64,000 nt of DNA from an uncultured bacterium. Its GTDB lineage: Bacteria; Fidelibacterota; UBA2242. The position numbers were made by a program, and so were the translations under genes. Position 1 is the first letter of the stretch, and each line of letters begins with the position of its first letter. The DNA lies in contig CAZSDW010000001.1 in the NCBI GenBank assembly GCA_964605705.1, positions 70,007 to 134,006 of the forward strand, read 5' to 3'. Below, in pieces: positions 1 through 21,961 of the stretch. The notes under the pieces were generated by a model. The model ran no database searches. It was not told the origin of the DNA and saw only the letters and a program-made list of their open reading frames with translations.

Positions 1-162
1 GGTTCTATTCGCCCAATTGATGATGTACGAGACGAAATTCTTCAGAAATTGACACAATCAAAAATTCAGGATTATTACAACAGTTATGTTGATAGTATCA
101 TTTCTATCACTGACTATGAAATTAAAAATGAAAATATTTTAAACTGGAAAATTACTCCATGA
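1..162 (+). CDS. 3' end of an upstream CDS (C-terminal fragment, unknown function; possibly a chaperone/PPIase-type protein)
   Basis: Open frame from window edge (GSIRPIDDVRDEILQKL...NWKITP*) ending at TGA 160-162, overlapping the next ATG (ccATGAaa) - translational coupling. Confidence 0.4.
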   Translation, partial: GSIRPIDDVRDEILQKLTQSKIQDYYNSYVDSIISITDYEIKNENILNWKITP

Positions 163-1412
163 AAAAATCTTTTTTTATAATTTTTACACTTATCTTATCA
201 ATTATATATGCCCAGGAACTAATTGATGGAATTGCCGCGATTGTAGGTGATAATATAATTCTAAAAAGTGATATTGATCAATTTGCTCGAATGAGTGCCT
301 CACAAATGGGAATTGATCCGACACGGGATATTAAAGCTTATAACCAAATCGTTGGTCAATCACTCCAAGCTCTGATTGATGAGAATATTTTACTTGAGCA
401 GGCAAAAATAGAAACAATTGAAGTTAAAGACCGTGAAGTTGAATCCATGCTAAATCAGCAAATAGAAAATATGATTTACCAAGCTGGTTCAAAAGAAAAT
501 GCTGAAAAAATATTGGGTAATCCAATTAATCAAGTAAAACGTGACTATAGACCAATTATCAAAAATCGACTAATTGTTGAAAAATTAAAGAGTGAAAAGT
601 TTTCTCAAATAAATATTACAAGACGTGAAATTGAAGATTTTTATAAAACATATAAAGACAGTATTCCAGAAATACCTCTAACTGTAGATTTTAGTCAGAT
701 TTTATTTCAGATTAAACCAGGGGTTTATGAGGAAAATAAGGCAAAACATCTCGCAGATTCATTATTAATACTTTTAAAAAATGGGGAGGATTTTGGAAAT
801 CTCGCAAAGAATTTTTCTGATGATCCTGCCAGTGCAGCTTACAGTGGAGATCTTGGTTATATTGCGAGGGGCGGATTTATCAAAGAATTCGAAGAAGTTG
901 CTTTTGCTCTGTCAACCAACGAAATAAGTGACGTCGTAAAAACAAAATTTGGATATCATATTATTCAATTACTGGATAAAAAGGGAGAAAATATCAATGT
1001 TCGCCACATTTTAATAAAACCTGAAATATCCAACAATAATATTACCGCCATTAAAAGTAAATCAGACTCTGTTAGAAACTTGTTAATAACCAACAAACTT
1101 CCATTTGATTCTGCTGCAGTGTTATTCAGTGACGATCCCGACGTAAAATCAAATAGGGGAAAAATTCAACGTATTTCGTTAACCCAAATTCAACAACCAG
1201 AATTTGTTGCTATTTTAGACACAATCTCCATTGGAAAAATAAGTCCCTTATTTAAAACAGATTTAGGATATCATATTCTTAAATTGGATAATAAATATGA
1301 CGATTCATGGACAATAATTAAGCAGTGGGCACTGGAATATAAAAAATCAAATCTTTATAAAAAATGGGTTAACGACTTACGCTTAAAATTTAACATTGAG
1401 ATTAAAAATTAA
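159..1412 (+). CDS. SurA-like periplasmic peptidyl-prolyl cis-trans isomerase (SurA_N + two parvulin/PpiC domains), N-terminal signal peptide
   Basis: Signal peptide MKKSFFIIFTLILSIIYAQ. Two parvulin-like segments (…FSDDPASAAYSGDLGYIARGGFIKEFEEVAF…GYHIIQL and …FSDDPDVKSNRGKI…GYHILKL). Length 417 aa. Confidence 0.75.
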   Translation: MKKSFFIIFTLILSIIYAQELIDGIAAIVGDNIILKSDIDQFARMSASQMGIDPTRDIKAYNQIVGQSLQALIDENILLEQAKIETIEVKDREVESMLNQQIENMIYQAGSKENAEKILGNPINQVKRDYRPIIKNRLIVEKLKSEKFSQINITRREIEDFYKTYKDSIPEIPLTVDFSQILFQIKPGVYEENKAKHLADSLLILLKNGEDFGNLAKNFSDDPASAAYSGDLGYIARGGFIKEFEEVAFALSTNEISDVVKTKFGYHIIQLLDKKGENINVRHILIKPEISNNNITAIKSKSDSVRNLLITNKLPFDSAAVLFSDDPDVKSNRGKIQRISLTQIQQPEFVAILDTISIGKISPLFKTDLGYHILKLDNKYDDSWTIIKQWALEYKKSNLYKKWVNDLRLKFNIEIKN

Positions 1413-1426
1413 TCATTAATTCGTTA

Positions 1427-1568
1427 TTGATTTGTTAATAATCCTATAACTTTTTCAAAATATTTTTTCACATTCAAATTATCATTTTTTATTAACAAAT
1501 TCCAAACAGATATTTTATAATAAAAATTTATTTTTCAAGAAGATAAATAATCGTTATTAACAAATCAA
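1427..1568. promoter_or_regulatory. Three copies of a 12-15 bp box TTATTAACAAAT(CAA) in a ~300 bp, ~80% AT intergenic region upstream of dnaN (copies at 1489-1500 +, 1554-1568 +, 1427-1441 inverted)
   Basis: Direct reading: ttgatttgttaataa (1427-1441) is the exact reverse complement of ttattaacaaatcaa (1554-1568). A third copy ttattaacaaat sits at 1489-1500. Both outer copies are preceded by tcgttatt. Confidence 0.45.
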
Positions 1569-1644
1569 CATTTGTATAATTCTAAAAATATCTATTTATC
1601 TTTATGATACTATATTTTATGTATTTTATTGATATTTAAATATC

Positions 1645-1673
1645 TTGTAAATATTGCGATATTTTGGTAAAAT
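1645..1673 (+). promoter_or_regulatory. Candidate sigma70-type promoter for dnaN (TTGTAA-N17-TAAAAT)
   Basis: TTGTAA at 1645-1650, 17-nt spacer, TAAAAT at 1668-1673. AAGGAG RBS follows before the ATG at 1710. Confidence 0.3.
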
Positions 1674-1709
1674 TACCTGTTGTGATAGCAAAATAAAAGG
1701 AGTATAAAA

Positions 1710-2825
1710 ATGCAATTTAGTATCGATAAAAACATTCTCCTTTCACATATTCAAAAAGTTTCAAAAGTATCTCCAACACGTTCTACAATGCCAATTTTAA
1801 ACAGCATTCTTTTTGAAGTTAGTGATGAAAAATTAACTCTTCGTTCTTCGGATATTGAAATAACAATGAATACAACACTGGATATCCAAAATTCAGAGGA
1901 CGGTTCAGTTGCATTACCTACCAGAATTATATATGATATTATCAACGAAGCAGAAGATGGTGAAATTAATTTTTCATCCGGTGAAGAAGGAAATACAATC
2001 CTGAAATCAGGACAGGGTATTTTTGAAATTATGGGTCGTCCCGGTGAGGAATTTCCATCATTACCACAAATTTCAAACTTTAATAATGTCGAAATTGATA
2101 ATTCAATTTTAAAAAGAATGATTCAGAAAACACTGATTGCAGTCAGTCGCGATGAACTGAAACCGGCGTTAATGGGAGTACTTTTTCAAGTAAAACATAA
2201 TGAAATTCGTACAGTTGCAACTGATGGACATCGTCTTGTATGTCTGGTAAGACATGATTTTGTAAATGAGGATTATGAAGGTGAGGTAATTATTCCGGTG
2301 AAGTTTTTAAATCTTTTACTGGGATATCTTGATAGTGAAGGAAAAACCTTATTATCAATCAGTGAAAATCACGTAAAAGTTGAATTAGATTCGACAGTTA
2401 TTTTTTCAAGAATAATTGATGAACATTTTCCGGATTATCAAAGTGTGATTCCAAAAGATAATAATAAAATTGTTGTTACTAATGTGGATAGTATTCTATC
2501 AACATTGAGACGCGTTGTTATTTTTTCCAATAAAACCACTCACCAAATATCTTTATCTCTAAGCAAGGAATTATCAAAAATAACTACGGTTAATCAGGAA
2601 TCGCGAACATCTGCTGACGAAGAAATTAATATTGATTATGATGGTGATGAGATGGTGGTTGGCTATAATGCTGAATATTTTAAAGAAATATTAAGGAATA
2701 TTGATACGGAAAAAGTATTACTGAAATTTAAGTCTTCGATTAATGCCTGTTTAATTTTACCGGAGCATCAAATAGAGGATGAAGATTTTACAATGCTCCT
2801 AATGCCAATACGATTAAATGAATAA
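1710..2825 (+). CDS. dnaN: DNA polymerase III beta subunit (sliding clamp)
   Basis: 371 aa. N-terminus MQFSIDKNILLSHIQKVSKVSPTRSTMPILNSILFEV is typical of beta clamp. Followed by recF. RBS AAAAGGAG upstream. Confidence 0.9.
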   Translation: MQFSIDKNILLSHIQKVSKVSPTRSTMPILNSILFEVSDEKLTLRSSDIEITMNTTLDIQNSEDGSVALPTRIIYDIINEAEDGEINFSSGEEGNTILKSGQGIFEIMGRPGEEFPSLPQISNFNNVEIDNSILKRMIQKTLIAVSRDELKPALMGVLFQVKHNEIRTVATDGHRLVCLVRHDFVNEDYEGEVIIPVKFLNLLLGYLDSEGKTLLSISENHVKVELDSTVIFSRIIDEHFPDYQSVIPKDNNKIVVTNVDSILSTLRRVVIFSNKTTHQISLSLSKELSKITTVNQESRTSADEEINIDYDGDEMVVGYNAEYFKEILRNIDTEKVLLKFKSSINACLILPEHQIEDEDFTMLLMPIRLNE

Positions 2826-2887
2826 AAATCTTAATTATTATATTTTTGTTATATCTCTGAATTTGTTTCTAAAATTTTGTACTTTTA

Positions 2888-4002
2888 ATGAAACTCACGA
2901 AGCTCACACTGAATCATTTCAGAAACTATAATCACTGCGTTTTTGAATTCAATGACAATCTGAATATTATTATAGGAAATAATGGTACAGGTAAAACGAC
3001 ATTACTTGAAGCCATTCATTTTCTATCGCTTACAAAAAGTTTTCGTACGCATAATGACACCGATGCGATAAGTTTTAATAACGATTATTTTCAAATATTT
3101 GGAACCTTTAGGGATAATAATAAGAAAGAGAATTTAGTTAATCTCAATTATTCAAAAGGTGCAGAAAAAAAACTGTTTTTAAACAATTCCGAACTTAAGA
3201 AAAAAACGGATATTATTGGTAAGATACCTGTCATTATTTTATCACCCGGAATTCAGAAAATCACCGATGGAGGTCCATCTATCAGAAGGAATTTTATTGA
3301 TAGAATATTATCACAGGTCGATCGTGATTATCTTTGTTCGCTTATTGAGTACAGAAAAATGTTAAGCCAAAGAAATATTTTATTAGTGGATTTTAAAAAA
3401 AGAAATGTCAGAAAATATGATAAGTATATGGAAACAATTGATGATATTTTAATTAATCATGCTTTTTATATTCAAACAAATAGACAGATTTTTTTTGAAT
3501 TATATAATCCAATTTTTAAAAAGAGTTTTGACACTCTTGCATATATTAAAAAGCCAGTCGATCTGAAAATAAATCCAAATATTTCTGCTGATAAAGAAGA
3601 TTTTAAACAGCAATTTAAAGATAAACTTGTTGATCGCTTTGAGAGAGATATTATTTTAGGTAGAACAAGCGCCGGTCCTCATTTGGACCAAATTTCCTTT
3701 CTGTTCGGAGATAGAGACATTCGCTTTGTTGGATCTCAGGGAGAACAAAAAATATATTTAGTTGCTTTAAAACTCGCTGAAAGTATTTTTATTGAAAACA
3801 GAACAAAAGATAAAATCATCTTTTTACTCGATGATCTTTTTGCTTTTCTTGATGTCAAACACTGTATGAATATTATTAAAAAGATCGGAAAAAGGAACCA
3901 GACCTTTATTACCGCTACCGATATAATGATATTTAAAAAAAATAAATTTAATTTTGAAAATTACAATTCAACGATTTTCGACTTACCTAAAGGAATGTCC
4001 TA

Positions 4003-4003
<1 letters not shown>
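2888..4003 (+). CDS. recF: DNA replication/repair protein RecF
   Basis: MKLTKLTLNHFRNY…GNNGTGKTTLLEAI (Walker A). 371 aa. Sits in the dnaN-recF-gyrB context. Confidence 0.9.
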
Positions 4004-6206
<2,203 letters not shown>

Positions 6207-8745: not shown

Positions 8746-9459
8746 ATGTCGGTAAACAGAATAAAAAGAATCTCACAAAATCTTTTAAGGGTCAGTCAAA
8801 ATATCCGTGATGCGGCTCTACGTTCAAATCGCGATCCCGACGAAATAACCCTGGTTGTCGTTACAAAAACCTGGTCATCTGAAATAATTCGTGTTGCCGC
8901 CGATCTTGGTCTCAGTCATTTTGGTGAAAATAGAATTCAGGAAGCTGCCCCTAAAATTGAGCAGATCAGGCAGGATTATGACAATTTAAGCTGGCATATG
9001 ATAGGACACCTGCAGTCCAATAAAGCGCGATCTGCGGTCGAATATTTTGATTTTGTCCAATCCATTGATTCGTTAAAAATTGCCCAGAAAATATCTAATC
9101 ATGCTACCGAATTGCAAAAGAACATTGACGTTTTATTAGAAATAAATATATCTGGTGAAAGCACAAAATTTGGAATCGATCCCGAGGACGTTTTCAAATT
9201 GGCGAAAGAGGTAAAAGGTTTACCATACTTAGATTTAAAGGGGCTGATGACAATCGGTCCAATGACTGATGATATCCGAGAGGTCAGAAAATCGTTTCGC
9301 CGGATGAAAAAAATTTTTGATATACTGAGACAGCAGCATTCCGAGCAAGAAATCAACGTATTATCGATGGGAATGAGCGACGATTACGAAATCGCTATTG
9401 AAGAAGGTTCGACAATGGTACGCTTGGGGCGAGCGATTTTTGGCTCCCGAGAACATTAA
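8746..9459 (+). CDS. yggS: YggS-family pyridoxal-phosphate homeostasis protein (PLPHP)
   Basis: 237 aa. LVVVTKTWSSEII…GENRIQEA…HMIGHLQSNKA is the classic YggS/YBL036c signature. Confidence 0.8.
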   Translation: MSVNRIKRISQNLLRVSQNIRDAALRSNRDPDEITLVVVTKTWSSEIIRVAADLGLSHFGENRIQEAAPKIEQIRQDYDNLSWHMIGHLQSNKARSAVEYFDFVQSIDSLKIAQKISNHATELQKNIDVLLEINISGESTKFGIDPEDVFKLAKEVKGLPYLDLKGLMTIGPMTDDIREVRKSFRRMKKIFDILRQQHSEQEINVLSMGMSDDYEIAIEEGSTMVRLGRAIFGSREH

Positions 9460-9473
9460 ATTGGGCGGTGAAA

Positions 9474-9902
9474 ATGATCCACAAAAAAGATATTTTAGAC
9501 CGAAAATTTAACAAGGCTTTCCGCGGTTATGATCCGGTTGAGGTGAACTACTTTTTAGAAATGGTTGCCGAGGAATTTGAAAAACTGGAGCATAGAATTC
9601 TCGAACTGGAACCAATCGAAAAACAATTTTCAGAAACGAATTTGAAAACCCCAAACGATATTATTGCGGATGCAGAAAGAACGGCAAAGAAGTTAATTGC
9701 CGATGCCGAAAAAATTTCATCAGATGTTCTGGATATGGCAAAGAGACAGAAAGAATCTGAGAAAGAAGAAATAATTCGTCTGACAAATAAAAAAAGCAAA
9801 TTGATTAAAACACTAAAAGATACCATATCTCAGCAGAGACAACTGATTAATTTTCTGGGCAATATTGAGGATACCCAGGAGGATTCTGATACGATAGAAT
9901 AA
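9474..9902 (+). CDS. divIVA: DivIVA-domain cell-division protein
   Basis: KAFRGYDPVEVNYFLEMVAEEFEKLE N-terminal DivIVA motif plus a coiled coil. The ORF track starts at GTG 9468; the ATG at 9474 has a better RBS. Confidence 0.7.
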   Translation: MIHKKDILDRKFNKAFRGYDPVEVNYFLEMVAEEFEKLEHRILELEPIEKQFSETNLKTPNDIIADAERTAKKLIADAEKISSDVLDMAKRQKESEKEEIIRLTNKKSKLIKTLKDTISQQRQLINFLGNIEDTQEDSDTIE

Positions 9903-10602: not shown

Positions 10603-11352
10603 TTACAACTTTTTCTGGCGGCATAGCGAATAATAGGTATCATTTTCCGCATCGTACCACCGCGAGACAATTATAGCGCCCTCTATATTTTCGTCATAGG
10701 ACTGTTGCAATATTTTGGATTCAATAATGTATTTATTATCCCGCTCTATGGCGTGAATCGAATGAGCGTCGATCTTTATATTCTTTCCAAGATCAAACCG
10801 GGCATATTCATCAGCGTCATTCCACGCCCGAACCCAGGATGAATAATTGGATACGATTCCAACACCGTAATTAAAATTTTTGGATTTGGGTAGAGAAGTA
10901 GTCCATTTGGGTTTATTCTCATCCCAACCAGTATCGTCACTTGGGACGCGCGGGGCGCGCTGCAAGGAATTCAAAGAGATAAGAATGAAATACCCATCAT
11001 AAGTAATAGAGGAGTCTATCGTAGCGTATGTTGCCTCTATTCTGTTCAAGATTGACTCGTCATAAGAAAGCTCCAAGGACGGGTCCAGTAACCGCAGGCG
11101 ACCATCGGAATATTCCTCAATTTCGAAAACAAGCCGGGTGCGTTGTTGCTTAACCATGTTGTGCAGCGCTTTCTTTATCGCCGCCTGCCGAGCAATGGAC
11201 TGGTTGATATATTTTCCGGAATAGCCAACCGCGTACATGTTTCCGGCAGGCGCATCCGGTAAGTTTTCGAACCAGCCCGGAATAATAGTCTGAGCGTCTA
11301 AGCTGCCCCATGAAAAGGCAAGAAAGACCAATATTTTTAACCCAATTTTCAT
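10603..11352 (-). CDS. Secreted protein with two LPP20-like repeats (PxW…YGVG…A..A motif twice), signal peptide
   Basis: MKIGLKILVFLAFSWGSLDAQ signal. IIPGWFENLP…MYAVGYSG…ARQAAIKKAL and KPKWTTSL…NYGVGIVSNYSSWVRAW. Confidence 0.5.
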   Translation of the reverse strand: MKIGLKILVFLAFSWGSLDAQTIIPGWFENLPDAPAGNMYAVGYSGKYINQSIARQAAIKKALHNMVKQQRTRLVFEIEEYSDGRLRLLDPSLELSYDESILNRIEATYATIDSSITYDGYFILISLNSLQRAPRVPSDDTGWDENKPKWTTSLPKSKNFNYGVGIVSNYSSWVRAWNDADEYARFDLGKNIKIDAHSIHAIERDNKYIIESKILQQSYDENIEGAIIVSRWYDAENDTYYSLCRQKKL

Positions 11353-11403
11353 AAAGGAAAATAAAGCCCGCTACCCTATTAAAGAATGGCGGGCTTTTTG
11401 GTT

Positions 11404-11955
11404 TTAGTTACCGACAGCTTCGAGCTTTTGAATTTCGCCTTCTAAATCATCGAAACTGAGGTTGGCTTTTGCCTCGTTGTAGAGCGCCTTCTGCTTTTTG
11501 GCTTCATTGACGGTTTCCTGAATCAAACTATTCAGATTGTACTCTGCCAGTGAATAAGCATGATATTGGGAACCTTCGGTTTTCATTTCGCGCTTTACAA
11601 TTTGAACACCACGCAGAACCGTGTTTGCCACCTGTTTACTTACCGATGAGGTAAATTCCAGCGCTTCGGCGTCATCACCCATGCCGCTCTGCTGCATGAA
11701 GTTCTTCAGCATGTTTGATACTTTAACTTCCAGTGTTCGGGCAATCGCGTCGCGGGCGCGGGCGTCGGCAGATTCTTTTGCCAGGCTCATGCTCTGTTTG
11801 GCGGCGTCACCAGCTTCATAAAAGGCATCCTCTGCTTTCGGTGGATTCAGATACCATTCGGGAATGTCATTCATTTTCGCCTTTGGTTTTCCGCCACAGT
11901 TGACAAGCATTAGTGCCAGTGGAATCATTAATGCGATAATAATCAGTTTTTTCAT
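11404..11955 (-). CDS. LPP20-family lipoprotein
   Basis: Lipobox LMLVNCGG. IPEWYLNPP…FYEAGDA…ARARDAIARTLEVKV resembles the Helicobacter Lpp20 / FlgP-type domain. 183 aa. Confidence 0.6.
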   Translation of the reverse strand: MKKLIIIALMIPLALMLVNCGGKPKAKMNDIPEWYLNPPKAEDAFYEAGDAAKQSMSLAKESADARARDAIARTLEVKVSNMLKNFMQQSGMGDDAEALEFTSSVSKQVANTVLRGVQIVKREMKTEGSQYHAYSLAEYNLNSLIQETVNEAKKQKALYNEAKANLSFDDLEGEIQKLEAVGN

Positions 11956-11989
11956 GGTTGTCTCCTTTCGCGTTTAATTTAATTGGATT

Positions 11990-13348
11990 TTATGGTTGAA
12001 TTGCTGTCTGCAAAAACGCAGCAAATTTTGATTTTGTAACACTGATATTTTCACATGCTTTCTGAACGGCATTTTCACGTGAACCCAATGCCATCCCGTT
12101 TCCTTTTGCCACGACGGAAGCAAGCTGTGTATTGGCGTTGGTGTCATTCAGCGACAGGGGCAATTCCAATTCAATAAAATATTGTCTTCCGGCAGGAGAA
12201 TCGATGATTCTTTCGCTTTTTAGTATCGCTGTTCCCTGAATCTTTAGATTGGATGTCGGATCATTTCGATATCCATTATTGTTTACCCAGCCGCCGACAA
12301 GCGCCCCCATGTTTTTGTTCGTGTTATCATTTATATCTTTAATCTCAATGGAAAATGACAGATCCGCTGTTACGATAGAGTAATTTACCGTTGCCTGAAT
12401 CTTTGAAAGGTCATTTCGGAAAATATCCGGTAGGTTGCTAAGACCGAGCGTAAAGTTGACAGCTCCGGAGCCAGTTGCGCCACCGGTCGGGGTTGCAATA
12501 ATATTTACAGAAAGCGTACCCTTATCGGATGATCCGAGCTTGTTGATAGTTTCGCCGTTGGCGTATTTTACGATAACCGGATACCATTTGAGCCCGATAT
12601 CATTACCGAAACTATCTTTATAAAAAACCCTTGCAACCACCGGTTCCTTAAGCGGAACTCCCAGCGAAGAAGTTTGATTATTGCCGCTGATGATTTTTAC
12701 ATCAATTGCCGCCAGGATCGTTCGAATTTCCGACAGAATACTTGCCACCGATGCGGTATTTTGATCGCCATAAACAGTTCCGGTGAGTGCGGTATAAAGT
12801 CCGCGCTTGATATAGAAATCGGGAACGATTTTTTGAGCAGATATATAATTGTCGAGCGCGTTGAACAAATTACCTTTCTGGACGAGATCCCGGGCGCTTT
12901 GCAGATACTGGTTTGACTCGGCGATTATTTTATCCATTTCCTGCTGCAATCCAGCCAGGTAATTCTGTTTATTTAATACCGCCAGGACGTAATGCTTACC
13001 CTTAATGTTTTCGGATTCAACGATCTCGATTCCGGCGACAGTTTCCGATACAATGGACTTGGTTTTTGAGGTAACCTCGGAGTGAATGGTGCTGCGATCG
13101 CCAGAACCGATCTCCTGTTCCATGGTTTCCAGTTCGGATTCAATTTTGACCTGAATCTGTTTTGCCACATCAGCGCGCGCCAGCTCAACCGCTTTGGTTT
13201 TATCTTCGGCGATCCCAACACCGAGCAGATAATCCGAATTGGGATATTTTTTATGACTATTACTTTGTGCCCATTTGGGAATTTGAGCGAGAACAAAACC
13301 GCTGATTATAAGTAAGACGCAGAAAATATATGGGGCTTTTTTAAACAC
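11990..13348 (-). CDS. Secreted protein, N-terminal LPP20-like domain + uncharacterised beta-rich C-terminal region
   Basis: Signal peptide. QIPKWAQS…YLLGVGIAEDKTKAVELARADVAKQIQVKI motif. 452 aa. Confidence 0.45.
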   Translation of the reverse strand: MFKKAPYIFCVLLIISGFVLAQIPKWAQSNSHKKYPNSDYLLGVGIAEDKTKAVELARADVAKQIQVKIESELETMEQEIGSGDRSTIHSEVTSKTKSIVSETVAGIEIVESENIKGKHYVLAVLNKQNYLAGLQQEMDKIIAESNQYLQSARDLVQKGNLFNALDNYISAQKIVPDFYIKRGLYTALTGTVYGDQNTASVASILSEIRTILAAIDVKIISGNNQTSSLGVPLKEPVVARVFYKDSFGNDIGLKWYPVIVKYANGETINKLGSSDKGTLSVNIIATPTGGATGSGAVNFTLGLSNLPDIFRNDLSKIQATVNYSIVTADLSFSIEIKDINDNTNKNMGALVGGWVNNNGYRNDPTSNLKIQGTAILKSERIIDSPAGRQYFIELELPLSLNDTNANTQLASVVAKGNGMALGSRENAVQKACENISVTKSKFAAFLQTAIQP

Positions 13349-13357
13349 GGGTCCTCC

Positions 13358-14623
13358 CTATTCTTCTTCAACGGAGAGTAGTAGTAGTTTGCGAGAGATC
13401 GAAACGCGCTTGACGACGCCACTGCCCGGATAGGATTTTTTGATGGCGCGGTAAATATCACTGGCCGCCGCAAATTCGGCTGGATTTACCCAGATAGATA
13501 CATCATATGTATAATCGGCAACCACGTGTTCTTTTACTAGGCAGGGCAGCGCTTTCAGGGCATCTCCCATAGAAAAAATGATTGCTTCGGCTTGTTCGGC
13601 ATCGAAGGAATTGTCAACACTGAGAATAATTTTATATTGAATCCCCTGTTTTGTATCCGATTTCCAGTAATTTGTAATTCGGCTGATTACCTTGTCAACG
13701 GCGTCGTTCATTGCCTCTTCTATTAATACGGCGTTTGCTCCAATCCGTTCCTGGCTGTACCCGGTATCGGTTCCCAACAATCTTCCGGTTGTTGTCTCAT
13801 AGGCTCGGCAACCAACCACCGCTTTTTTGACGGTGGAGCTGCCCAGCGTGCGGGATTCAATGGTGACATTATAAGAAACGTAAACATCGCTTCCAATTGA
13901 AAGTGCCAATAAATAACTATAGTCATCGCCGGTGCCGCTGAGCGCGTATTGAGTTGCGCTGAGTTCCTGGAGGACTTGCTGTTGTTCGGGGACAATAACC
14001 GAATATTTTTTCGCTGTCAGATATGACTCAATGACTTCCGCGGCTTTTTTAATGTCAGCATTCTGCCGAAGCAGATCGAGCGGTGCAATATCACCGCTAG
14101 ATTCCGGTATCACCATTATAGTCGGCATACCAACCGATAGAGAAATTTTTGCGGCGGCAGTAATCACCGATTTTTTGACCAGATATTCTTCCAGCAGGGT
14201 CTTGTTAATTTTGAAAGTTTTTTCAATTTTCAGAGTTTTTCCGCCGTCGGTTTTCAGGCGCTTATCATAATAATCTGCCTCCCATGCTATGAACTGCCGG
14301 ATATTTTCGATTGTGTAAAAATCATTTTCCATTTTCTGAAAGGCGATTTTCTCTTCATCGGTTTGAATTAGGGGATCGCTGCCACCGAGCAGAACATACC
14401 AGACAGCTGTCTTCGCAGCATCTTCATTGGCGCTTTTATCAAGAACGCTGGCATTGGGCTTGCGGTGTTTTTCATCAATTCCCATTCCGGTGGCTCGTAT
14501 CAGCAGCTCTGACGGCGAACTACTTTCAATCAGGGTTGCTTCACGAGCCCGTGGAAGATTGGACGCAAGCACAACAGCTGAGAATAAAAACATAAGGACA
14601 AGAATGTATTTCAACGGTTTCAT
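13358..14623 (-). CDS. Secreted hypothetical protein (weakly LPP20-like N-terminus)
   Basis: Signal peptide MKPLKYILVLMFLFSAVVLA. 9-nt gap to downstream gene. 4-nt overlap with upstream gene, indicating an operon. Confidence 0.4.
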   Translation of the reverse strand: MKPLKYILVLMFLFSAVVLASNLPRAREATLIESSSPSELLIRATGMGIDEKHRKPNASVLDKSANEDAAKTAVWYVLLGGSDPLIQTDEEKIAFQKMENDFYTIENIRQFIAWEADYYDKRLKTDGGKTLKIEKTFKINKTLLEEYLVKKSVITAAAKISLSVGMPTIMVIPESSGDIAPLDLLRQNADIKKAAEVIESYLTAKKYSVIVPEQQQVLQELSATQYALSGTGDDYSYLLALSIGSDVYVSYNVTIESRTLGSSTVKKAVVGCRAYETTTGRLLGTDTGYSQERIGANAVLIEEAMNDAVDKVISRITNYWKSDTKQGIQYKIILSVDNSFDAEQAEAIIFSMGDALKALPCLVKEHVVADYTYDVSIWVNPAEFAAASDIYRAIKKSYPGSGVVKRVSISRKLLLLSVEEE

Positions 14624-16383
14624 TTGGGGACCTCTATGTTTTTCATCTGGTTCTGAACAATCGCCACGGGATTAAACGGCAGAGATGGCGGCGAAAAATG
14701 AATATAAATTCCAATTGTTGGACTGTAACTGTAAAACTTGGGTGCAACCCAGCCGGTTTCATTTTCAATATCGATTTCGTCGTCATCATATTTTACAGTC
14801 CAGATATCGAGGGGTGGAAACGCCTGAACCCCCGCGAAAACACCGACGTTCCAGTCGATATTTACGGCGTATTCAAGCCCAACATCCAGCTTGACACCAA
14901 AGGTGTAATTTGAAATTGTGACCTTTTCACCATTGTAATAATCATTCCCGCGATTTTTTGAAATATATGTAATTTGTGTTCCAAGCGATGCTTCGCCATG
15001 AATTGCAAAGGGACCGAGATAGTACCGTTTGAGATATCCAATATATCCATAATAAAGACCGGCGACCCAATTTTGGGTTGGTATAAGATCGCGCCAATGC
15101 CAATTTTCATCCCAATAAGCAAAATCAAAGATGGTACTTTTCACCGGCACGGCACTCGCGGTACCACCAAAGACCAGGAAGCTTTGGCGCTTTTTTGTCA
15201 GGTTTGCAATGTTCCACTGGAAGTTCATGTCAAGTCCGAGGGAACCTCCTTCGTAATTATCAAAATAAACAACAAAACCCTCGTCGGAGTTCATCATAAA
15301 TCCTTCTTCGACATTGATGTTAAACCAGCGCGGTCTGAAAGCAATATCGATTCCTAATCTGGGGTGTTCAATGACCATCATTCCTCGTGACCAATCGCCT
15401 TTTTTGATGGCGACAGCCTGCGATAGTTGTCCACCGGAATTGAGATTATCTGAGACTGTGCTTACGCGCACAAAACCGGATTTTTCAAACCGGATTTTGC
15501 CATGAACGTTTTCTGTCCATTCACCGACGAAAAACGGATCGTCCAGCCGTATCCCCTCCGCATTACCCAGTGGAAAACCAATTCTTCGGCGTTGAATTTC
15601 AGCAATCGGTGCGCTCAATTTGAACATGTCCAGCTCGCGGGTCTTGATCTCAAGGTTCATCGCCAGTGTATTAGCAGCGCCCCAGAAAGCATATTCTTTC
15701 GGGGAGGCTTTTTGTCCATCAATCTGATAATTTTCCTCGGTGTCGGCACTGGAATAGGCGTCGGACGTCAATTTTGTAATTTTTTCAACGATCGGTTCAT
15801 CTCCCGGTATAATATGGTACCAGAGCAGACCACCCGAAAGATTGACGGTGATTTCTTTACTGTCCTTTTCTTTCTTCGCGCTGAGGTTGCTGATAAATGG
15901 GATATACAGAAACGAGGAATTCATCACCTGTTCAAGCTGCTCGGCTGTGATGCCGGCGTCTTTTGCTTTAAGGGCGATAAAAGAATTTTTCTGTGTTTCG
16001 GTAACCAATTGCTGGGCACGCATTTCCTTTTGAATATCAAGGATCTTGATGATTTCCGGGACAATCGTTGAATTGATCAGTGATGTCAATTCGTCGTCGG
16101 AAATATTCCCGCTTTTCGCCAGGCGATTGGTGAAAGATGATTGGATCCGATCGGGCAGCGGATTATAGTCGAAGCGGGCGATTTGAATGCCCTGATTAAT
16201 AGCGCCGGTGTATAATTGCTGTTCTCTTGGGCTAGTTTTAAAATCACCGGTTGCCAGGAGGGCGGTTGTGTAAGAGATGGATTTGCGCGTGTATCCCTGA
16301 GTGCTTTGGGCGTGTCCGCTGATTGCGAAGAAACAGACCGGAAAAGCAATCAGTGCGAGATAGGATGTCTGCTTATACTTCAT
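14620..16383 (-). CDS. Secreted protein with beta-strand-rich C-terminal half (putative outer-membrane beta-barrel); first gene of the minus-strand LPP20 operon
   Basis: Start chosen at MKYKQTSYLALIAFPVCFFAISGHAQ, which gives a signal peptide and has an AAAGGTGA RBS. The ORF-track start at 16464 lacks a signal peptide. C-terminus has an alternating hydrophobic pattern. Confidence 0.45.
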   Translation of the reverse strand: MKYKQTSYLALIAFPVCFFAISGHAQSTQGYTRKSISYTTALLATGDFKTSPREQQLYTGAINQGIQIARFDYNPLPDRIQSSFTNRLAKSGNISDDELTSLINSTIVPEIIKILDIQKEMRAQQLVTETQKNSFIALKAKDAGITAEQLEQVMNSSFLYIPFISNLSAKKEKDSKEITVNLSGGLLWYHIIPGDEPIVEKITKLTSDAYSSADTEENYQIDGQKASPKEYAFWGAANTLAMNLEIKTRELDMFKLSAPIAEIQRRRIGFPLGNAEGIRLDDPFFVGEWTENVHGKIRFEKSGFVRVSTVSDNLNSGGQLSQAVAIKKGDWSRGMMVIEHPRLGIDIAFRPRWFNINVEEGFMMNSDEGFVVYFDNYEGGSLGLDMNFQWNIANLTKKRQSFLVFGGTASAVPVKSTIFDFAYWDENWHWRDLIPTQNWVAGLYYGYIGYLKRYYLGPFAIHGEASLGTQITYISKNRGNDYYNGEKVTISNYTFGVKLDVGLEYAVNIDWNVGVFAGVQAFPPLDIWTVKYDDDEIDIENETGWVAPKFYSYSPTIGIYIHFSPPSLPFNPVAIVQNQMKNIEVPK

Positions 16384-16500
16384 ATCACCTTTTGTACAAT
16401 TTTTCCTATATCCGTTATCGGTTATGTGTAGTCCAAATTTCGATATGCAGGTTTTAGATGTCAACCCTTTTCTTTTTGATGTCTCGACTGAATATAAATA

Positions 16501-16529
16501 TTGACATTATGTGATTTGGCGCATAATAT
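16501..16529 (+). promoter_or_regulatory. Sigma70-type promoter TTGACA-N17-TAATAT for the LTD-repeat gene; the inverted TGTCAA at 16460-16465 may be the divergent -35 for the minus operon
   Basis: TTGACA at 16501-16506, 17-nt spacer, TAATAT at 16524-16529. AGGT RBS at 16546-16549. Confidence 0.4.
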
Positions 16530-16554
16530 TCTATGGAAATATTATAGGTTTATA

Positions 16555-19500
16555 TTGTTGAAGTTTCTTAATCCCGACAAGCTCCTTCCTTTTTTCATTT
16601 TATTCGTCGCCAACGGTGTTATGTTCGCCCAATCCGTCACTATAAATGAGGTTATGTTTGATGCCATTGGAATTGATGATTATGATGAGTTTATCGAGAT
16701 AGTCAATATCGGAGATGCATCAATAGACCTGCAAGGTTTTTATCTGGAGATAAATGGTTATGTCGATTCGATTGATTTTAAAGATGATAGCACAAGCCTG
16801 GAATCCGGCGCCTATGCTTTGATCTTTGACCAGGGCTATCAACAATCAGGCACCTATGAGGGTCTCATACCCGCAACAGCATTGCGTTGTACAATTCATG
16901 ATAACTATTTTGGGACAAGTGGTTTGAAGAATTCTGTCCCCAATATAGTCCTGCTTTTAAATTCTGATGGTGATACGCTATCGGCTGCTACAACGAGTCC
17001 CGACCAGGACGCGGGTTATTCAGATGAAAAGATCGATGTTTTTGGCGATAACGATCAAACAAACTGGGGAAATGCAATTTCTTTATATGGTACACCGGGA
17101 TATGAAAACAGTATCGCAATGAAAGATTCTGACCTGGCAATTACCGATTTTCGAAGGCTCAATGAGGATATTTTCCCAATCCCCGGAACACCGGTTGAAT
17201 TTATATTAAAGATTCAAAACCTGGGGCGAAACATCATTGAAAACGCCGATGTCGTTTTTGGCATTGATCAGAACCAGGACTCAATGCTTCATTATAGCGA
17301 AATCCTATATAATGATATCTTGACAATCAGCCCGCTGGATTCGGTTGTGTTGTACCCGACCCTTCCGATGATTAGATCAGGCAGCCACGAAATAATGTCG
17401 GCAATTCTTTTAGAAGATGAAATGCCGGAAAATAATGATTTACGATATACTTTGTGGGTGCCGTATGAAAAGGGCGCGGTTCTAATCAATGAGTTTATGT
17501 ATGCACCAAAATCTGACCATGGCGGCGAATGGATCGAACTTCTGAATATTTCACCAGATACAATAGACCTTGCCCACTGGAAAATTTGTGATGAGGCATC
17601 AGGAATCGCCGGAGCCGTAATTACTTCGTCCAGAAGCCTGGTTGCCCCGAATTCGTTGGTTGTTTTGTCGTCGGACGCGACCTTGGAAAATTTCTGGGAA
17701 ATAGAGGACGTGCACATCGTTTGTGAAAAAAAACTCCCGTCGCTGAATGATACTGGAGATTCGATTATTGTACGGGACTTATGTGGAGTAGCAATAGATT
17801 CTTTAAAGTATTCGAGCGCTTGGGGCAAGCAGACGGGCGTGGCGTTGGAGCGAATTGACCCCCATGGGGACAGCAATCTTTCTGATAACTGGGCGCTTTC
17901 GGCTGACACTTCCGGCGGAACTCCGGGACGACAAAATAGCTGTAAGGTAAAAAGTTATGATATTTCTCTTGATGAACTGGAAATTTTGTCGGAAAACATT
18001 TTCAATGGCGATTACTTTGAAACATCTTTTAGATTAATGAATAAAGGCATTGAAAATGTAAGCACCTATTCTATCCGCTTCCGGATAGAAAATCAGGATT
18101 CGATAGAAAACAGCCCGGCAGTTTTGGATTCTGTGGTTAATTATTCCATAACTCTAATGCCGGGAGAATTTTCTATAAGGACGGTTGATTTTCATTCTGT
18201 CTCCGGTGGGGCTTATACCCTGTTTGCAACGGTTGTATTTGAGGAAGATGAAAACCTACAAAATAACAGTGATAGTTGTGATCTCGTAATTGGATACCCC
18301 GTCCACTCAATTATTATAAATGAAGTTATGAACATACCCGAGACAGGTGAATCCGAGTGGTTTGAGATATATAATCCGGTGGATTTCCCGGTTGACCTGA
18401 ATCGATGGCGGTTTCGGGACGCGAATGGGACTTGGAAGTATCTGATAACACAACCGAAAATTTTGGAACCCAATGATTTTTGTATCATTGCCGCCAGCCG
18501 GGATTTTCTACAGGCGTATCCGGCATTTGATGGTCCTATGATAATACCACAGAAATTTCCAATTTTGAATAACAGCTCCGATTCCCTGTTTTTAGTCGAT
18601 GCAACCGGGCACTCGATTGAAACGGTGTATTTTCGACAGGACTGGGGCGGGGGAACCGGCATTAGTATTGAGCGCAGAGATCCCAATGCTCCAGCACAGA
18701 CGGAGAATAACTGGGGCAGCTCGACAGATCCGGCGGGTGCAACTCCGGGAGCAATAAATTCCATTCTGAAATATCAGCGCGACCTTTCGATTATTCCCAC
18801 CAGCTTCAGGTTTGTCGATTCAACAGTGTCGTTAATTCGTCCGGTAAAGTTTATGATTGAGGTCAAAAATAATGGCAGCATCAAATCCGGAAAATTTTCG
18901 CTGGAAATATACTATGATCGTGATCGAAGCGAAAGCGTTACTCCGGATGAAATTGTCTGGAGCCTGCACAGTATTCCGGCACTTTTACCCGATTCTGTCA
19001 TTTTTCTTGATGGCGAATTCTATTCGGAGACATCGGGTCGATGTAGATATATCGCCATGGTGGCGATGACTGAAGATGAGAATATTTTTGATAATACCGC
19101 GTGCCGGGATTTACTGGTTGCGTATCCGAAAGGCTCGTTACTTTTCAATGAATTTCTGGCATATCCCAGGGCGGAACAGACGGAATTTTGTGAAATTGTC
19201 AATGTCAGCAGCGGAAATATCAATTTCGGCGAATGGCGATTTTCCAATAGCCGCAGCACAGCAATGATTTTACAAACTCGCGATTTGAATATTTCCCCGG
19301 GAGAATATATTGTTTTGGCAAAAGACAGCAGTTTTTTCGAGAAATTTCCCACGGTGACGGGCAAAACAATCATACCGGAAAAATGTCCCGGATTAAATAA
19401 TTCTATCGACAAAATTATTCTTAAAGATTTGACCGGTACGGTAATAGATTCTCTGGCTTTTGATGACAGCTGGAATGTAATGTCCGGAGTATCTCTCGAG

Positions 19501-20745
19501 AAAAAGCTGCCGGTTTACCAGAGCCATAATGTTTTTAACTGGTTTTTATCGACCGACCCGACTGGTGCAACACCGGGACGTAAAAACTCAGTAATGCCGC
19601 TCGCATATGATATTCAGCTGGATTCAGTGGTGGTATTTCCCGAAACCGGATCGTCCGCCACGGAATTTCAAGCCCGATGCTGGTTTACGAATGTCGGATT
19701 AAATAAAAGTTCACCCGCAGAACTGGCGATTATTCAAAAAAGTCTAAGCGGGTCCCAAACAATCAAATCTGTAGCAATAAAGTCTTTGGAAGTTGGTGAA
19801 AGCGATTCTATTCTAATTAATTTTGGCAAATTCAATTCTGGTTATTACCACCTGGCGCTTGTCGCTCTTTGGGAATATGATTCAAATAGAATGAATGACA
19901 CTCTTAATTTTTCAATTAGAGTTGCTTTTGAAAAAGGAGCCCTGCTCTTATCTGAGTTTATGGCGAGTCCATTGATCGTTAAAACAACGGGAGGTTCTAT
20001 CGCGGAGTATATCGAGATATACAATCCCAACGACGAAACATTACTGGAAGCCTGGTCGATCTGCGATGAAAACACCGGCGCTCCGGTGAAGATATTCACA
20101 GAGAAAGCCGTCGGTCAGGGCGGGTTTTTCGTGATTGCAAACGATTCCACAATATTTCAATATGATCAGGTTTTACCCGAAAATACAATTGTATTACCAC
20201 ACTTTCCTTCGTTGGGCAATACTGAGGACGGCATCTATTTAATCGGTCCCGCGGGCACCATTGTTGATAGTTTGAAATATGATTCCGGCTGGTCGATAAC
20301 GCAGAATAAATCAATGGAAAGGGTATATTATACGAATCCCAACCTGATGAATAATTGGCGACTGTCAACCGCGGCGGCGGGAGGAACGCCGGGATATAAG
20401 AACAGCGTTGCCATTACAGATGAATCTGTGAAACCCGGTATAAAAGTAACGCCCAATCCATTTTCGCCGAATGGTGATGGAATTGATGAACAGGTGGCAA
20501 TCCAGTTCCTTTTGCCCTTTCCCAGTGCAAATGTCAATATGCAGATTTACGATATGATGGGACGATTGATTTTTGAGCCAGCCAAAAACCTTCCGTCATC
20601 TTCCGAAGGAGCAGTCTATTGGGACGGATCGAGTATTCATGGCAACCGCGCCCGGATCGGGATGTATGTGGTACGTTGTTCGGCAACCGATGCGACAAGT
20701 GATAAAACTGTTGGCTATATCACAACCGTTGTTCTGGCACGATGA
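16555..20745 (+). CDS. Giant secreted surface protein: 5x (lamin-tail-domain + CARDB/Ig-like) modules and a C-terminal FlgD-Ig-like / T9SS type-A-like sorting domain
   Basis: TTG start gives the signal peptide MLKFLNPDKLLPFFILFVANGVMFAQ. Five INEVM/INEFM…EWIELYN…W LTD signatures, each ending GGTPG(R/Y)xNS. C-terminus TPNPFSPNGDGIDE…IYDMMGRLIF…VYWDG…GMYVV. Confidence 0.7.
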   Translation: MLKFLNPDKLLPFFILFVANGVMFAQSVTINEVMFDAIGIDDYDEFIEIVNIGDASIDLQGFYLEINGYVDSIDFKDDSTSLESGAYALIFDQGYQQSGTYEGLIPATALRCTIHDNYFGTSGLKNSVPNIVLLLNSDGDTLSAATTSPDQDAGYSDEKIDVFGDNDQTNWGNAISLYGTPGYENSIAMKDSDLAITDFRRLNEDIFPIPGTPVEFILKIQNLGRNIIENADVVFGIDQNQDSMLHYSEILYNDILTISPLDSVVLYPTLPMIRSGSHEIMSAILLEDEMPENNDLRYTLWVPYEKGAVLINEFMYAPKSDHGGEWIELLNISPDTIDLAHWKICDEASGIAGAVITSSRSLVAPNSLVVLSSDATLENFWEIEDVHIVCEKKLPSLNDTGDSIIVRDLCGVAIDSLKYSSAWGKQTGVALERIDPHGDSNLSDNWALSADTSGGTPGRQNSCKVKSYDISLDELEILSENIFNGDYFETSFRLMNKGIENVSTYSIRFRIENQDSIENSPAVLDSVVNYSITLMPGEFSIRTVDFHSVSGGAYTLFATVVFEEDENLQNNSDSCDLVIGYPVHSIIINEVMNIPETGESEWFEIYNPVDFPVDLNRWRFRDANGTWKYLITQPKILEPNDFCIIAASRDFLQAYPAFDGPMIIPQKFPILNNSSDSLFLVDATGHSIETVYFRQDWGGGTGISIERRDPNAPAQTENNWGSSTDPAGATPGAINSILKYQRDLSIIPTSFRFVDSTVSLIRPVKFMIEVKNNGSIKSGKFSLEIYYDRDRSESVTPDEIVWSLHSIPALLPDSVIFLDGEFYSETSGRCRYIAMVAMTEDENIFDNTACRDLLVAYPKGSLLFNEFLAYPRAEQTEFCEIVNVSSGNINFGEWRFSNSRSTAMILQTRDLNISPGEYIVLAKDSSFFEKFPTVTGKTIIPEKCPGLNNSIDKIILKDLTGTVIDSLAFDDSWNVMSGVSLEKKLPVYQSHNVFNWFLSTDPTGATPGRKNSVMPLAYDIQLDSVVVFPETGSSATEFQARCWFTNVGLNKSSPAELAIIQKSLSGSQTIKSVAIKSLEVGESDSILINFGKFNSGYYHLALVALWEYDSNRMNDTLNFSIRVAFEKGALLLSEFMASPLIVKTTGGSIAEYIEIYNPNDETLLEAWSICDENTGAPVKIFTEKAVGQGGFFVIANDSTIFQYDQVLPENTIVLPHFPSLGNTEDGIYLIGPAGTIVDSLKYDSGWSITQNKSMERVYYTNPNLMNNWRLSTAAAGGTPGYKNSVAITDESVKPGIKVTPNPFSPNGDGIDEQVAIQFLLPFPSANVNMQIYDMMGRLIFEPAKNLPSSSEGAVYWDGSSIHGNRARIGMYVVRCSATDATSDKTVGYITTVVLAR
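16636..20410 (+). repeat. Five diverged intragenic tandem repeats (~820 bp period) encoding the LTD+CARDB modules
   Basis: Recurring ggNggaac(t/g)ccggga… (GGTPG) at ~17090, 17921, 18733, 19565 and 20380. Protein-level periodicity ~275 aa. Confidence 0.6.
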
Positions 20746-20839: not shown

Positions 20840-21961
20840 ATGACAAAGAAATTTACGGTTTTTGGGATCATTCTGCTGATTGCTTTCAATGGATTTTCGC
20901 AGGATATGTCGGAATTTTCGATGGATCAGGTTAAGCAATTGGTTGAATCCAACGGAAAAAGCTATTTGCAACCACTGGTTACGGGCTACGGTTCAGCCAT
21001 GAACGCGGGTCTGTATAATACCGCCAAAACCCACAAAATACTGGGATTTGACATCGGGCTAAAAATGGGATTTGGAATTGTGCCCACCGGTGAGAAATCG
21101 ACATACGATTTCGATCTTACGGCACTGGATAATATACCTGTTACAGTTGGGGATTATACTCTTGATTTAAATCCATCTGAGCTATTTTCAAATACAGAAA
21201 CGCCTACGATTTTAGGTGGCGCGGCAGAGCCATTTGAGGTTGATGAGACTTATATTACGGGTCTTGTATATAGTCAGGCGAGAGAAAACATAGTAACAAC
21301 ATTTCCTGGTCAAACAGATGAGTGGTATGATAACCAGGCACAAACAGCGGTTGACGCTTTAAGCAGTGATATTTCCGATGCCGCAGATGAAGTGGCAATT
21401 TCTTCAATTCCAGGTATTAAATCTATTTCAGGGCTTGAGGACATGGAAAATTTAATTTTCCCATTTCCGATTTTACAGGCAAGCGTAGGACTTCCAATGG
21501 GTATTGAGCCTTCCATTCGGATGATCCCGGCAATCTCTATTCCCGGCGATGTTGGTGATGCGCTTGGTGAAATATCTTCGTTTGGTGTTGGTCTGAAAGT
21601 TGACGTTGATCAGTTTATTCCCATTCCACTGTTTCCGGTTGATATTGCCGCCCAGGCATTCTATCAGAATTTTTCGATTGGGGATATTCTTTCTGCCAAT
21701 AATATGAATTTCAACGTTCACGTCAGTAAAAAGCTTCTGATGCTTACCCCCTATATTGGAATGGGCGTTGACAATACGACCTTTACCGCCAGCTATGAAA
21801 TGGGCGATGGTGTGAAACAGGATTTTACCATTAAGGGTGATAATAAATTAAGAACCACTTTCGGACTGAATATTAAACTGCTTATTTTGCAGGTCAATGC
21901 CGAATATTCCATGGGTGAATATAACTCTGCTGCCGTGGGACTTGCATTTACACTGCGCTAA
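20840..21961 (+). CDS. Secreted beta-rich protein, putative outer-membrane protein co-transcribed with the LTD protein
   Basis: Signal peptide MTKKFTVFGIILLIAFNGFSQD. 95-nt gap after the LTD gene. Followed by a strong terminator. Confidence 0.45.
   Translation: MTKKFTVFGIILLIAFNGFSQDMSEFSMDQVKQLVESNGKSYLQPLVTGYGSAMNAGLYNTAKTHKILGFDIGLKMGFGIVPTGEKSTYDFDLTALDNIPVTVGDYTLDLNPSELFSNTETPTILGGAAEPFEVDETYITGLVYSQARENIVTTFPGQTDEWYDNQAQTAVDALSSDISDAADEVAISSIPGIKSISGLEDMENLIFPFPILQASVGLPMGIEPSIRMIPAISIPGDVGDALGEISSFGVGLKVDVDQFIPIPLFPVDIAAQAFYQNFSIGDILSANNMNFNVHVSKKLLMLTPYIGMGVDNTTFTASYEMGDGVKQDFTIKGDNKLRTTFGLNIKLLILQVNAEYSMGEYNSAAVGLAFTLR

Follow-up and report, generated by a model that had tools for sequence, protein, structure and literature searches.

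The flagellar motors of Vibrio, Campylobacter, and Helicobacter have gained torque-related discs made of FlgT and of LPP20/SHS2 proteins. The SHS2 fold is shared by FlgP, Lpp20, and FlgT; concentric rings are built from FlgP, and FlgQ resembles a repeat of two FlgP units (PMC12222027). The H-ring of Vibrio contains 26 copies of FlgT and 58 of the lipoproteins FlgP and FlgO, and is lipid-anchored (bioRxiv 10.64898/2025.12.02.691832). In Helicobacter pylori, HP1456 (Lpp20) and HP1454 interact with FlgP and FapH, and HP1454 is described as secreted and built of three domains, the first of them similar to Lpp20 (PMC11756786). Here we report a computational analysis of a cluster of five genes, designated A to E, that encode exported proteins of LPP20-like, FlgT-like, and outer-membrane-barrel types in an uncultured marine bacterium (GTDB lineage Fidelibacterota, UBA2242; GenBank assembly GCA_964605705.1). 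Its nearest relatives in the databases place it in the Marinimicrobia, another name for the Fidelibacterota. The window is the whole stretch of DNA that was analysed, 64,000 nucleotides (nt) of contig CAZSDW010000001.1 (positions 70,007 to 134,006 of the forward strand), and coordinates refer to it unless another locus is named.

On balance, the products of these genes probably form an outer-membrane-anchored periplasmic scaffold, most likely flagellum-independent, that is related to parts of the flagellar H-ring and basal disk. We infer this function from the export signals and the lipobox, the domain families and folds, the conserved gene order, and conserved terminator and promoter blocks. 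The five genes are as follows.

10603-11352, minus strand: gene A, 249 amino acids (aa); signal peptide; two tandem LPP20-like modules (approximately residues 21-135 and 140-249)
11404-11955, minus strand: gene B, 183 aa; small LPP20 lipoprotein; lipobox Cys20
11990-13348, minus strand: gene C, 452 aa; GTG start behind GGGAGG; signal peptide; N-terminal LPP20 domain, residues 24-125
13358-14623, minus strand: gene D, 421 aa; signal peptide; three FlgT-like periplasmic domains; DUF6175
14620-16383, minus strand: gene E, 587 aa; signal peptide; periplasmic PelC/CsgG/FlgT-like half (approximately residues 30-340) and beta-barrel (approximately 345-565)

Layout of the cluster and comparison with described systems

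The cluster was first noticed in a reading of the sequence (below, the original prediction) that described five tightly spaced minus-strand genes, each with a signal peptide or a lipobox. Our analysis reproduced this layout, with intergenic gaps of 51 nt between A and B, 34 nt between B and C, and 9 nt between C and D, and a 4-nt overlap (ATGA) of the D start with the E stop. Hydrophobic N-terminal signal sequences are present on all five proteins and are kept in their orthologues. Within the cluster, only B has a lipobox cysteine, Cys20, which does not vary among 23 orthologues; the signal peptides of A and C are of the ordinary type, and the C orthologues of Spirochaetes have an N-terminus with a cysteine (LIGC or FLGC).

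The cluster resembles the Vibrio H-ring in that the model of D aligns end to end with the three-domain FlgT, that B is a small LPP20/SHS2 lipoprotein like FlgP, and that all components are exported and outer-membrane-associated, the H-ring being tethered at the same membrane by lipid anchors. It differs from the H-ring in several respects: D has neither sequence similarity to FlgT nor a Pfam FlgT match, no FlgO match was found in the cluster, the integral barrel E and the 452-aa multidomain LPP20 protein C have no H-ring counterpart, and the cluster occurs in mostly non-motile lineages, with no flagellar genes nearby in the inspected loci. With the basal disk of Campylobacter and Helicobacter (FlgP, FlgQ) and the H. 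pylori lpp20 operon (HP1456, HP1454, HP1457) it has the LPP20 family, PF02169, in common. Like HP1454, C is a secreted multidomain protein with an Lpp20-like first domain, and A is a tandem LPP20 repeat, as is FlgQ. However, the epsilonproteobacterial lpp20 and basal-disk operons are without the partners D and E, and the context of the present cluster is non-flagellar.

The third group of comparable systems comprises the lipoprotein rings of CsgG, PelC, and GNA1162, to which D and E are similar only in the periplasmic fold of their models. Neither D nor E has a lipobox, and in E the barrel is an OmpA-like one of its own, whereas CsgG contributes hairpins to a composite pore; in the inspected loci the cluster also lacks adjacent substrate or biosynthesis genes. 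The comparators named in the original prediction, the Helicobacter lpp20 operon and the Neisseria GNA1162 cluster with its DUF799, DUF4810, and CsgG-like proteins, were thus aptly chosen in terms of the C profile, which matches an LPP20 structure (see below), and of the D and E models, which match CsgG, PelC, and GNA1162 at the fold level. The Pfam families CsgG, DUF799, and DUF4810, which it proposed for checking, gave no match among A to E. Three features had gone unnoticed: that the cluster is linked to FlgT and the H-ring, that a terminator precedes A, and that E-D-C undergoes modular replacement.

LPP20 proteins A, B, and C

In a Pfam search against the LPP20 family PF02169, which has a curated gathering threshold of 25.9 bits, C scored 55.9 bits and B 32.6 bits, both above the cut-off, and A remained below it with 22.8 bits over residues 148-243. 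We further compared profiles made from the orthologues in 82 fetched loci using hhalign. Each half of A matches the profiles of B and C with 91-96% probability; the individual values are 96.3% for the N-terminal against the C-terminal half of A, 96.1% and 95.7% for these halves against B, and 98.7% for B against the N-terminal domain of C, so that the four modules are interrelated at 91-98.7%. The N-terminal domain of D reached 1.6% against LPP20, showing no relation. E was unrelated to any other module in both full-length and domain-level comparisons, and no D-E relationship was found.

The LPP20 content predicted from these profiles is therefore three proteins with four modules, of which A has two. 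The expectation that one protein carries the LPP20 motif twice holds for A, and the LPP20 check proposed for each gene turned out positive for C and B and, through profile-profile support, for the sub-threshold A, but D and E gave no match. The claim that at least four proteins share the motif was accordingly too high by sequence, and the description of all five as sequence paralogues was rejected by hhalign: D belongs to DUF6175 and E to an unclassified family.

The C profile matches the PDB entry 4kzs ('LPP20 lipofamily protein'; E-value 1e-8, residues 24-149), which we take to be H. pylori HP1454, and homologues of C are annotated as LPP20 family lipoproteins. Beyond the LPP20 domain, C extends for approximately 320 residues in which, inspecting the sequence by eye, we distinguished a helical hairpin followed by a beta-rich region and, at the end, an alpha/beta region; this part had no match in Pfam or among PDB sequences. 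The B profile retrieved nothing meaningful from the PDB, neither the Lpp20 nor the FlgP sequence being found, and an NCBIfam search with all five proteins gave no real match. A literature search on FlgT-like and FlgP-like proteins and on the LPP20 domain or family found no papers.

Protein D, a DUF6175 protein with a FlgT-like model

Protein D matches DUF6175 (PF19672) with 34.6 bits, above the threshold of 23 bits, over residues 166-343, and the curated threshold is passed by all 44 tested D homologues. The match spans only profile positions 2-201 of 293, and the FlgT_N-like N-terminal domain of D falls outside the DUF6175 model. The AlphaFold2 model of D (predicted local distance difference test, pLDDT, 84.1) has three domains, the central one with a PelC/CsgG/TolB-N fold. 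In a Foldseek search its top matches were the FlgT structures 8z5n_0 (E-value 2.6e-9) and 3w1e (3.1e-9), with an alignment of approximately 405 columns that covers the entire length of both proteins. The model thus has the three-domain N-M-C architecture and the fold of FlgT. At the sequence level, the Pfam models FlgT_N and FlgT_M as well as FlgT_C found no match in D or its 44 homologues at E<=0.1, and the D profile retrieved no FlgT chain from the PDB at E<=10, nor any other meaningful match. Our search of a literature library found no paper on DUF6175, which gains here a first structural and contextual annotation.

Protein E, an unclassified outer-membrane protein family

In its AlphaFold2 model (pLDDT 83.7), E consists of a periplasmic N-terminal half and a C-terminal beta-barrel, in agreement with the original description of the C-terminal half as beta-barrel-like. 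The modelled barrel is closed, has about eight strands of the OmpA/OprF-N/NspA type, and matches the 8-stranded anchors OprF-N, NspA, OmpA, and PagL. E has no Pfam family match, although OMP_b-brl was weakly touched by 7 of 33 E homologues, and its profile found nothing meaningful in the PDB. Among 1.84 billion representatives, the family comprises 888 clusters (50% identity) at E<=1e-3 and 304 at E<=1e-30, and E is thus a real but rare, unclassified outer-membrane protein family, which is defined here. Between the last barrel strand and a short helix, the whole family has an almost unvarying motif, (H/Y)(F/Y)SPPxLPFNP (E residues approximately 563-587; window 14620-14700); it might be a periplasmic docking element.

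The best fold matches of the D and E models, namely the PelC 12-mer, CsgG, the TraT 10-mer, and FlgT, are ring formers under or in the outer membrane. These matches raise the possibility that the cluster is a secretion or export machine for polymers, for instance exopolysaccharides, amyloids, or surface fibres of another kind, in which D and the periplasmic half of E would make a PelC/CsgG-like funnel or channel ring and the LPP20 proteins would serve as CsgE/F-like accessories. Both GNA1162 and 3bf2, from a CsgG-like lipoprotein cluster, are also among the fold matches, and in LCP-89/Zixibacteria-type loci the E-D pair is preceded by an SLBB-domain protein and a FadL/UPF0164-like barrel. Polysaccharide-export proteins are among those that contain SLBB domains. 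However, the 8-stranded anchors that the E barrel matches are too narrow to let a polymer through, neither D nor E has a lipobox or a Pfam CsgG match, and Foldseek places FlgT, over its full length, rather than CsgG first. Moreover, no substrate, glycosyltransferase, or polymerase genes stand beside the trio E-D-C in the window or in six other loci (L001-L004, L064, L070). We therefore regard a polymer exporter as unlikely.

Transcription signals

Two putative regulatory segments of the cluster and the divergent neighbouring gene G are as follows.

11363-11397, minus strand: B/A hairpin, intrinsic-terminator-like, with a T-rich tract (11353-11362) leading to the ATG of A
16436-16464, minus strand: candidate E-D-C-B promoter, TTGACA (16464-16459), 17-nt spacer, GAAATT(TGG) (16441-16436)
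16501-20745, plus strand: gene G, giant surface protein, open reading frame (ORF) as mechanically called; divergent from E; lamin-tail (LTD) and CARDB domains and a type IX secretion system (T9SS) signal

The hairpin lies directly after the stop codon of B, and its T-rich tract runs into the start codon of A. RNA folding gave a stability of -21 kcal/mol (z-score -3.98), which none of 200 shuffled sequences reached. All 20 orthologous loci examined have a GC-rich hairpin at this position; its stem differs in sequence between loci and, in most of them, a T-rich tail follows. It looks like a conserved intrinsic terminator or attenuator, and it would split the cluster into the transcription unit E-D-C-B plus A. 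The proposal of a five-gene operon thus holds for the tight spacing of the five genes but not for A as a regular member of the unit, and A is best described as expressed by read-through or on its own.

The intergenic region between E and G is 117 nt long and contains two blocks conserved in 13 aligned Marinimicrobia loci. The block on the E side consists of the TTGACA and GAAATT boxes and an upstream AAGAAAA block, conserved in all 13 aligned regions, and is a putative promoter. A longer E ORF starting from TTG 16464 was rejected, because this TTG begins the conserved -35 box, and the start of E is thus ATG 16383. On the plus strand, the conserved promoter of G (TTGACA 16501-16506, 17 nt, TAATAT 16524-16529) lies inside the mechanically called G ORF, whose TTG 16501 belongs to the -35 box. 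Translation of G therefore probably starts near 16555-16558; a start at TTG 16555 or 16558 would yield the signal peptide M(L)KFLNPDKLLPFFILFVANGVMFAQS.

Conservation and modularity of the cluster

A genome scan with the E profile identified 78 loci from Marinimicrobia, Calditrichota, LCP-89, Zixibacteria, Cloacimonadota, Fibrobacterota, Bacteroidota (including metagenome-assembled genomes, MAGs, of Chitinophagales and Flavobacteriales), and Spirochaetes. One cultured isolate, Pleomorphochaeta sp. DL1XJH-081, is among them. Synteny was counted in the 56 distinct loci with enough downstream sequence: D directly follows E in 48; E, D, and C stand next to one another in 42, across Marinimicrobia, Calditrichota, Cloacimonadota, Fibrobacterota, Bacteroidota, and Spirochaetes; B is present in 29, in some cases upstream of E, and A in 24. 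In Spirochaetes and Bacteroidota loci the E-D-C trio stands alone between unrelated housekeeping genes. Genes A and G are almost confined to Marinimicrobia-type loci, where the full five-gene layout beside G is the norm. The best-conserved protein of E-D-C across phyla is D, and within Marinimicrobia B is the most conserved of the whole cluster (66-91% identity). An array of this kind had seemed unusual in the original prediction, but it is regular in Marinimicrobia, and its E-D-C core is spread across the Fibrobacterota-Chlorobiota-Bacteroidota (FCB) group and Spirochaetes. Both observations whose absence was to count against that prediction, LPP20 matches and conservation of the gene array in related genomes, were found.

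In locus L061, E, D, and C are divergent (33, 44, and 33% identity to the window proteins), and the adjacent G, B, and A are close (47, 86, and 57%), from which we conclude that E-D-C was replaced as a unit in a fixed position. The same pattern recurs beyond this locus: L061 (2119-8767), L077, and L075 have a 'type 2' E-D-C (E with 27-35% identity) together with B, A, and G nearly as in the close relatives of the window, which indicates replacement of the three-gene module in situ. Two copies of E were observed in tandem in L033 (9935-13297) and L059 (10001-13626), and flanking D-C in L057.

Alternatively, the five genes could encode independent envelope proteins (antigens, adhesins, or regulators of the LpoB or TolB-N type) that are co-located by descent and do not belong to a single machine. 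LPP20 function outside flagella is undefined, an hp1456 mutant is as resistant to bacitracin as the wild type (PMC11756786), and in 8 of the 56 loci E is not directly followed by D; in one of these that we inspected in detail, L042, E stands alone. Against independence speak the 4-nt overlap of E and D and the short gaps, the E-D-C order kept in at least six phyla at 27-46% identity, the joint replacement of E-D-C in L061, and the conserved promoter and terminator, which make an unconnected assortment of proteins distinctly improbable.

A different arrangement was observed in LCP-89/Zixibacteria-type loci, which have a six-gene array (L043 6184-13041; also L045-L047 and L049-L052) in the order FadL/UPF0164-like barrel, a 260-aa protein of unknown type, SLBB-domain protein, 379-aa FlgT_N protein, E, and D, with no C, B, or A. 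In L043, the 379-aa protein upstream of E matches FlgT_N (PF16548) with 37.3 bits.

We also considered whether the cluster encodes a genuine flagellar motor accessory, an equivalent of the H-ring or basal disk, of flagellated Marinimicrobia. The set of a FlgT-like D, an FlgP/Lpp20-like B, and a FlgQ-like tandem protein A parallels those of Vibrio and Campylobacter, and some Marinimicrobia MAGs encode flagellar assembly genes. However, the Pfam FlgT models miss D, and no flagellar gene was found around the cluster in the annotated part of the window (8.7-29 kb) or in the inspected neighbourhoods. The E-D-C core is found in Cloacimonadota, Fibrobacterota, Pleomorphochaeta, and MAGs of Bacteroidota, including Chitinophagales and Flavobacteriales. 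Bacteroidota are generally non-flagellated. The family of Pleomorphochaeta, Sphaerochaetaceae, is described as mostly non-motile (PMC7179689). A dedicated role in a flagellar motor thus appears highly improbable, and the occurrence of E-D-C in mostly non-motile lineages, together with the lack of flagellar genes in the inspected neighbourhoods, favours a flagellum-independent scaffold.

Proposed organisation of the scaffold

In the scaffold that we favour, E would insert into the outer membrane via its small OmpA/OprF-like barrel and hang its PelC/CsgG/FlgT-like module into the periplasm. D, whose gene nearly always neighbours that of E and is coupled to it in translation, would be a soluble three-domain FlgT-like protein docking onto E. 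C would act as a secreted protein with an N-terminal LPP20 domain and further domains, like HP1454, B as a lipid-anchored LPP20 protein, like Lpp20 or FlgP, and A as a tandem LPP20 protein in the arrangement described for FlgQ, possibly made in smaller amounts because the terminator precedes its gene. Together, C, B, and A would supply subunits of the SHS2 type for an oligomeric lattice or ring that is tethered to the outer membrane at its inner face. The T9SS-secreted giant protein G with its lamin-tail domains may, in Marinimicrobia, have this scaffold as its platform or partner.

Several observations weigh against this organisation. Profile and Pfam searches detected no sequence-level similarity of D or E to FlgT, CsgG, or PelC, and the Foldseek TM-scores of D to FlgT are low (0.21-0.30), which we attribute to differing inter-domain orientations. 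Envelope proteins very commonly have the PelC/LptE/TolB-N fold, and the fold alone does not imply rings. Physical interaction, oligomerisation, stoichiometry, and physiological role are deduced here from genes and monomer models, and the suggested functional link between G and the cluster from their conserved adjacency. The loci with E but no adjacent D, the flagellar assembly genes of some Marinimicrobia MAGs, and the position of E-D beside an SLBB-domain protein and another barrel in LCP-89/Zixibacteria-type loci, a hint of polymer export, count on the same side.

The cluster bears on the origin of flagellar disc parts, as it represents a conserved, apparently flagellum-independent set in which a FlgT-like protein and three LPP20 proteins are combined with a dedicated outer-membrane anchor. 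In a bolder interpretation, which we find doubtful though worth stating, E-D-C(-B-A) would form a previously unseen ring or disc beneath the outer membrane in FCB-group bacteria and Spirochaetes, most of them non-motile, and represent the non-flagellar stock from which FlgT, FlgP, and FlgQ were recruited, in Marinimicrobia also anchoring or organising G. The presence of the genes in the cultured Pleomorphochaeta sp. makes the question open to experiment. The cluster may also provide a platform in the envelope with a link to the giant surface proteins that are abundant in uncultured marine Marinimicrobia.

Neighbor G and the surroundings of the cluster

The presence of a giant surface protein next to the cluster, as originally described, was borne out by the domain content of G. 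In Pfam, LTD reached 192 bits over five stretches and CHU_C 34.6 bits; G has five lamin-tail domains, one CARDB domain, and a T9SS C-terminal sorting domain. Homologues of G are divergently oriented beside E in approximately 30 loci, including the module-swapped L061.

Directly after G, here and in L001 and L002, lies a gene for a DUF6588 protein (window 20840-21961; 180 bits) that has no sequence relative in the PDB. A relationship of this protein to the barrel heading the LCP-89 array was rejected, since the two were unrelated by comparison, and a cross-phylum link via the barrel was dropped. The genes immediately upstream of the cluster (window 9468-9902 and 8746-9459) are of the ordinary housekeeping kind and show no synteny with it in other loci; they encode a YggS-type pyridoxal phosphate-binding protein (Ala_racemase_N), a short protein with a DivIVA domain, and a member of the PNP_UDP_1 phosphorylase family.

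The beginning of the window (1-4400) differs in base composition, its first approximately 4 kb having a G+C content of about 29% compared with about 43% in the remainder. The genes identified in this part are as follows.

159-1412: SurA-like peptidyl-prolyl isomerase
1710-2825: dnaN
2888-4003: recF
4371-6206: gyrB

The step-up in G+C content is located in the 367-nt gap before gyrB, and the HATPase domain of GyrB is unusually near the N-terminus. Either an AT-rich region near the origin or a chimeric join in the assembly could account for the low-G+C start of the window.

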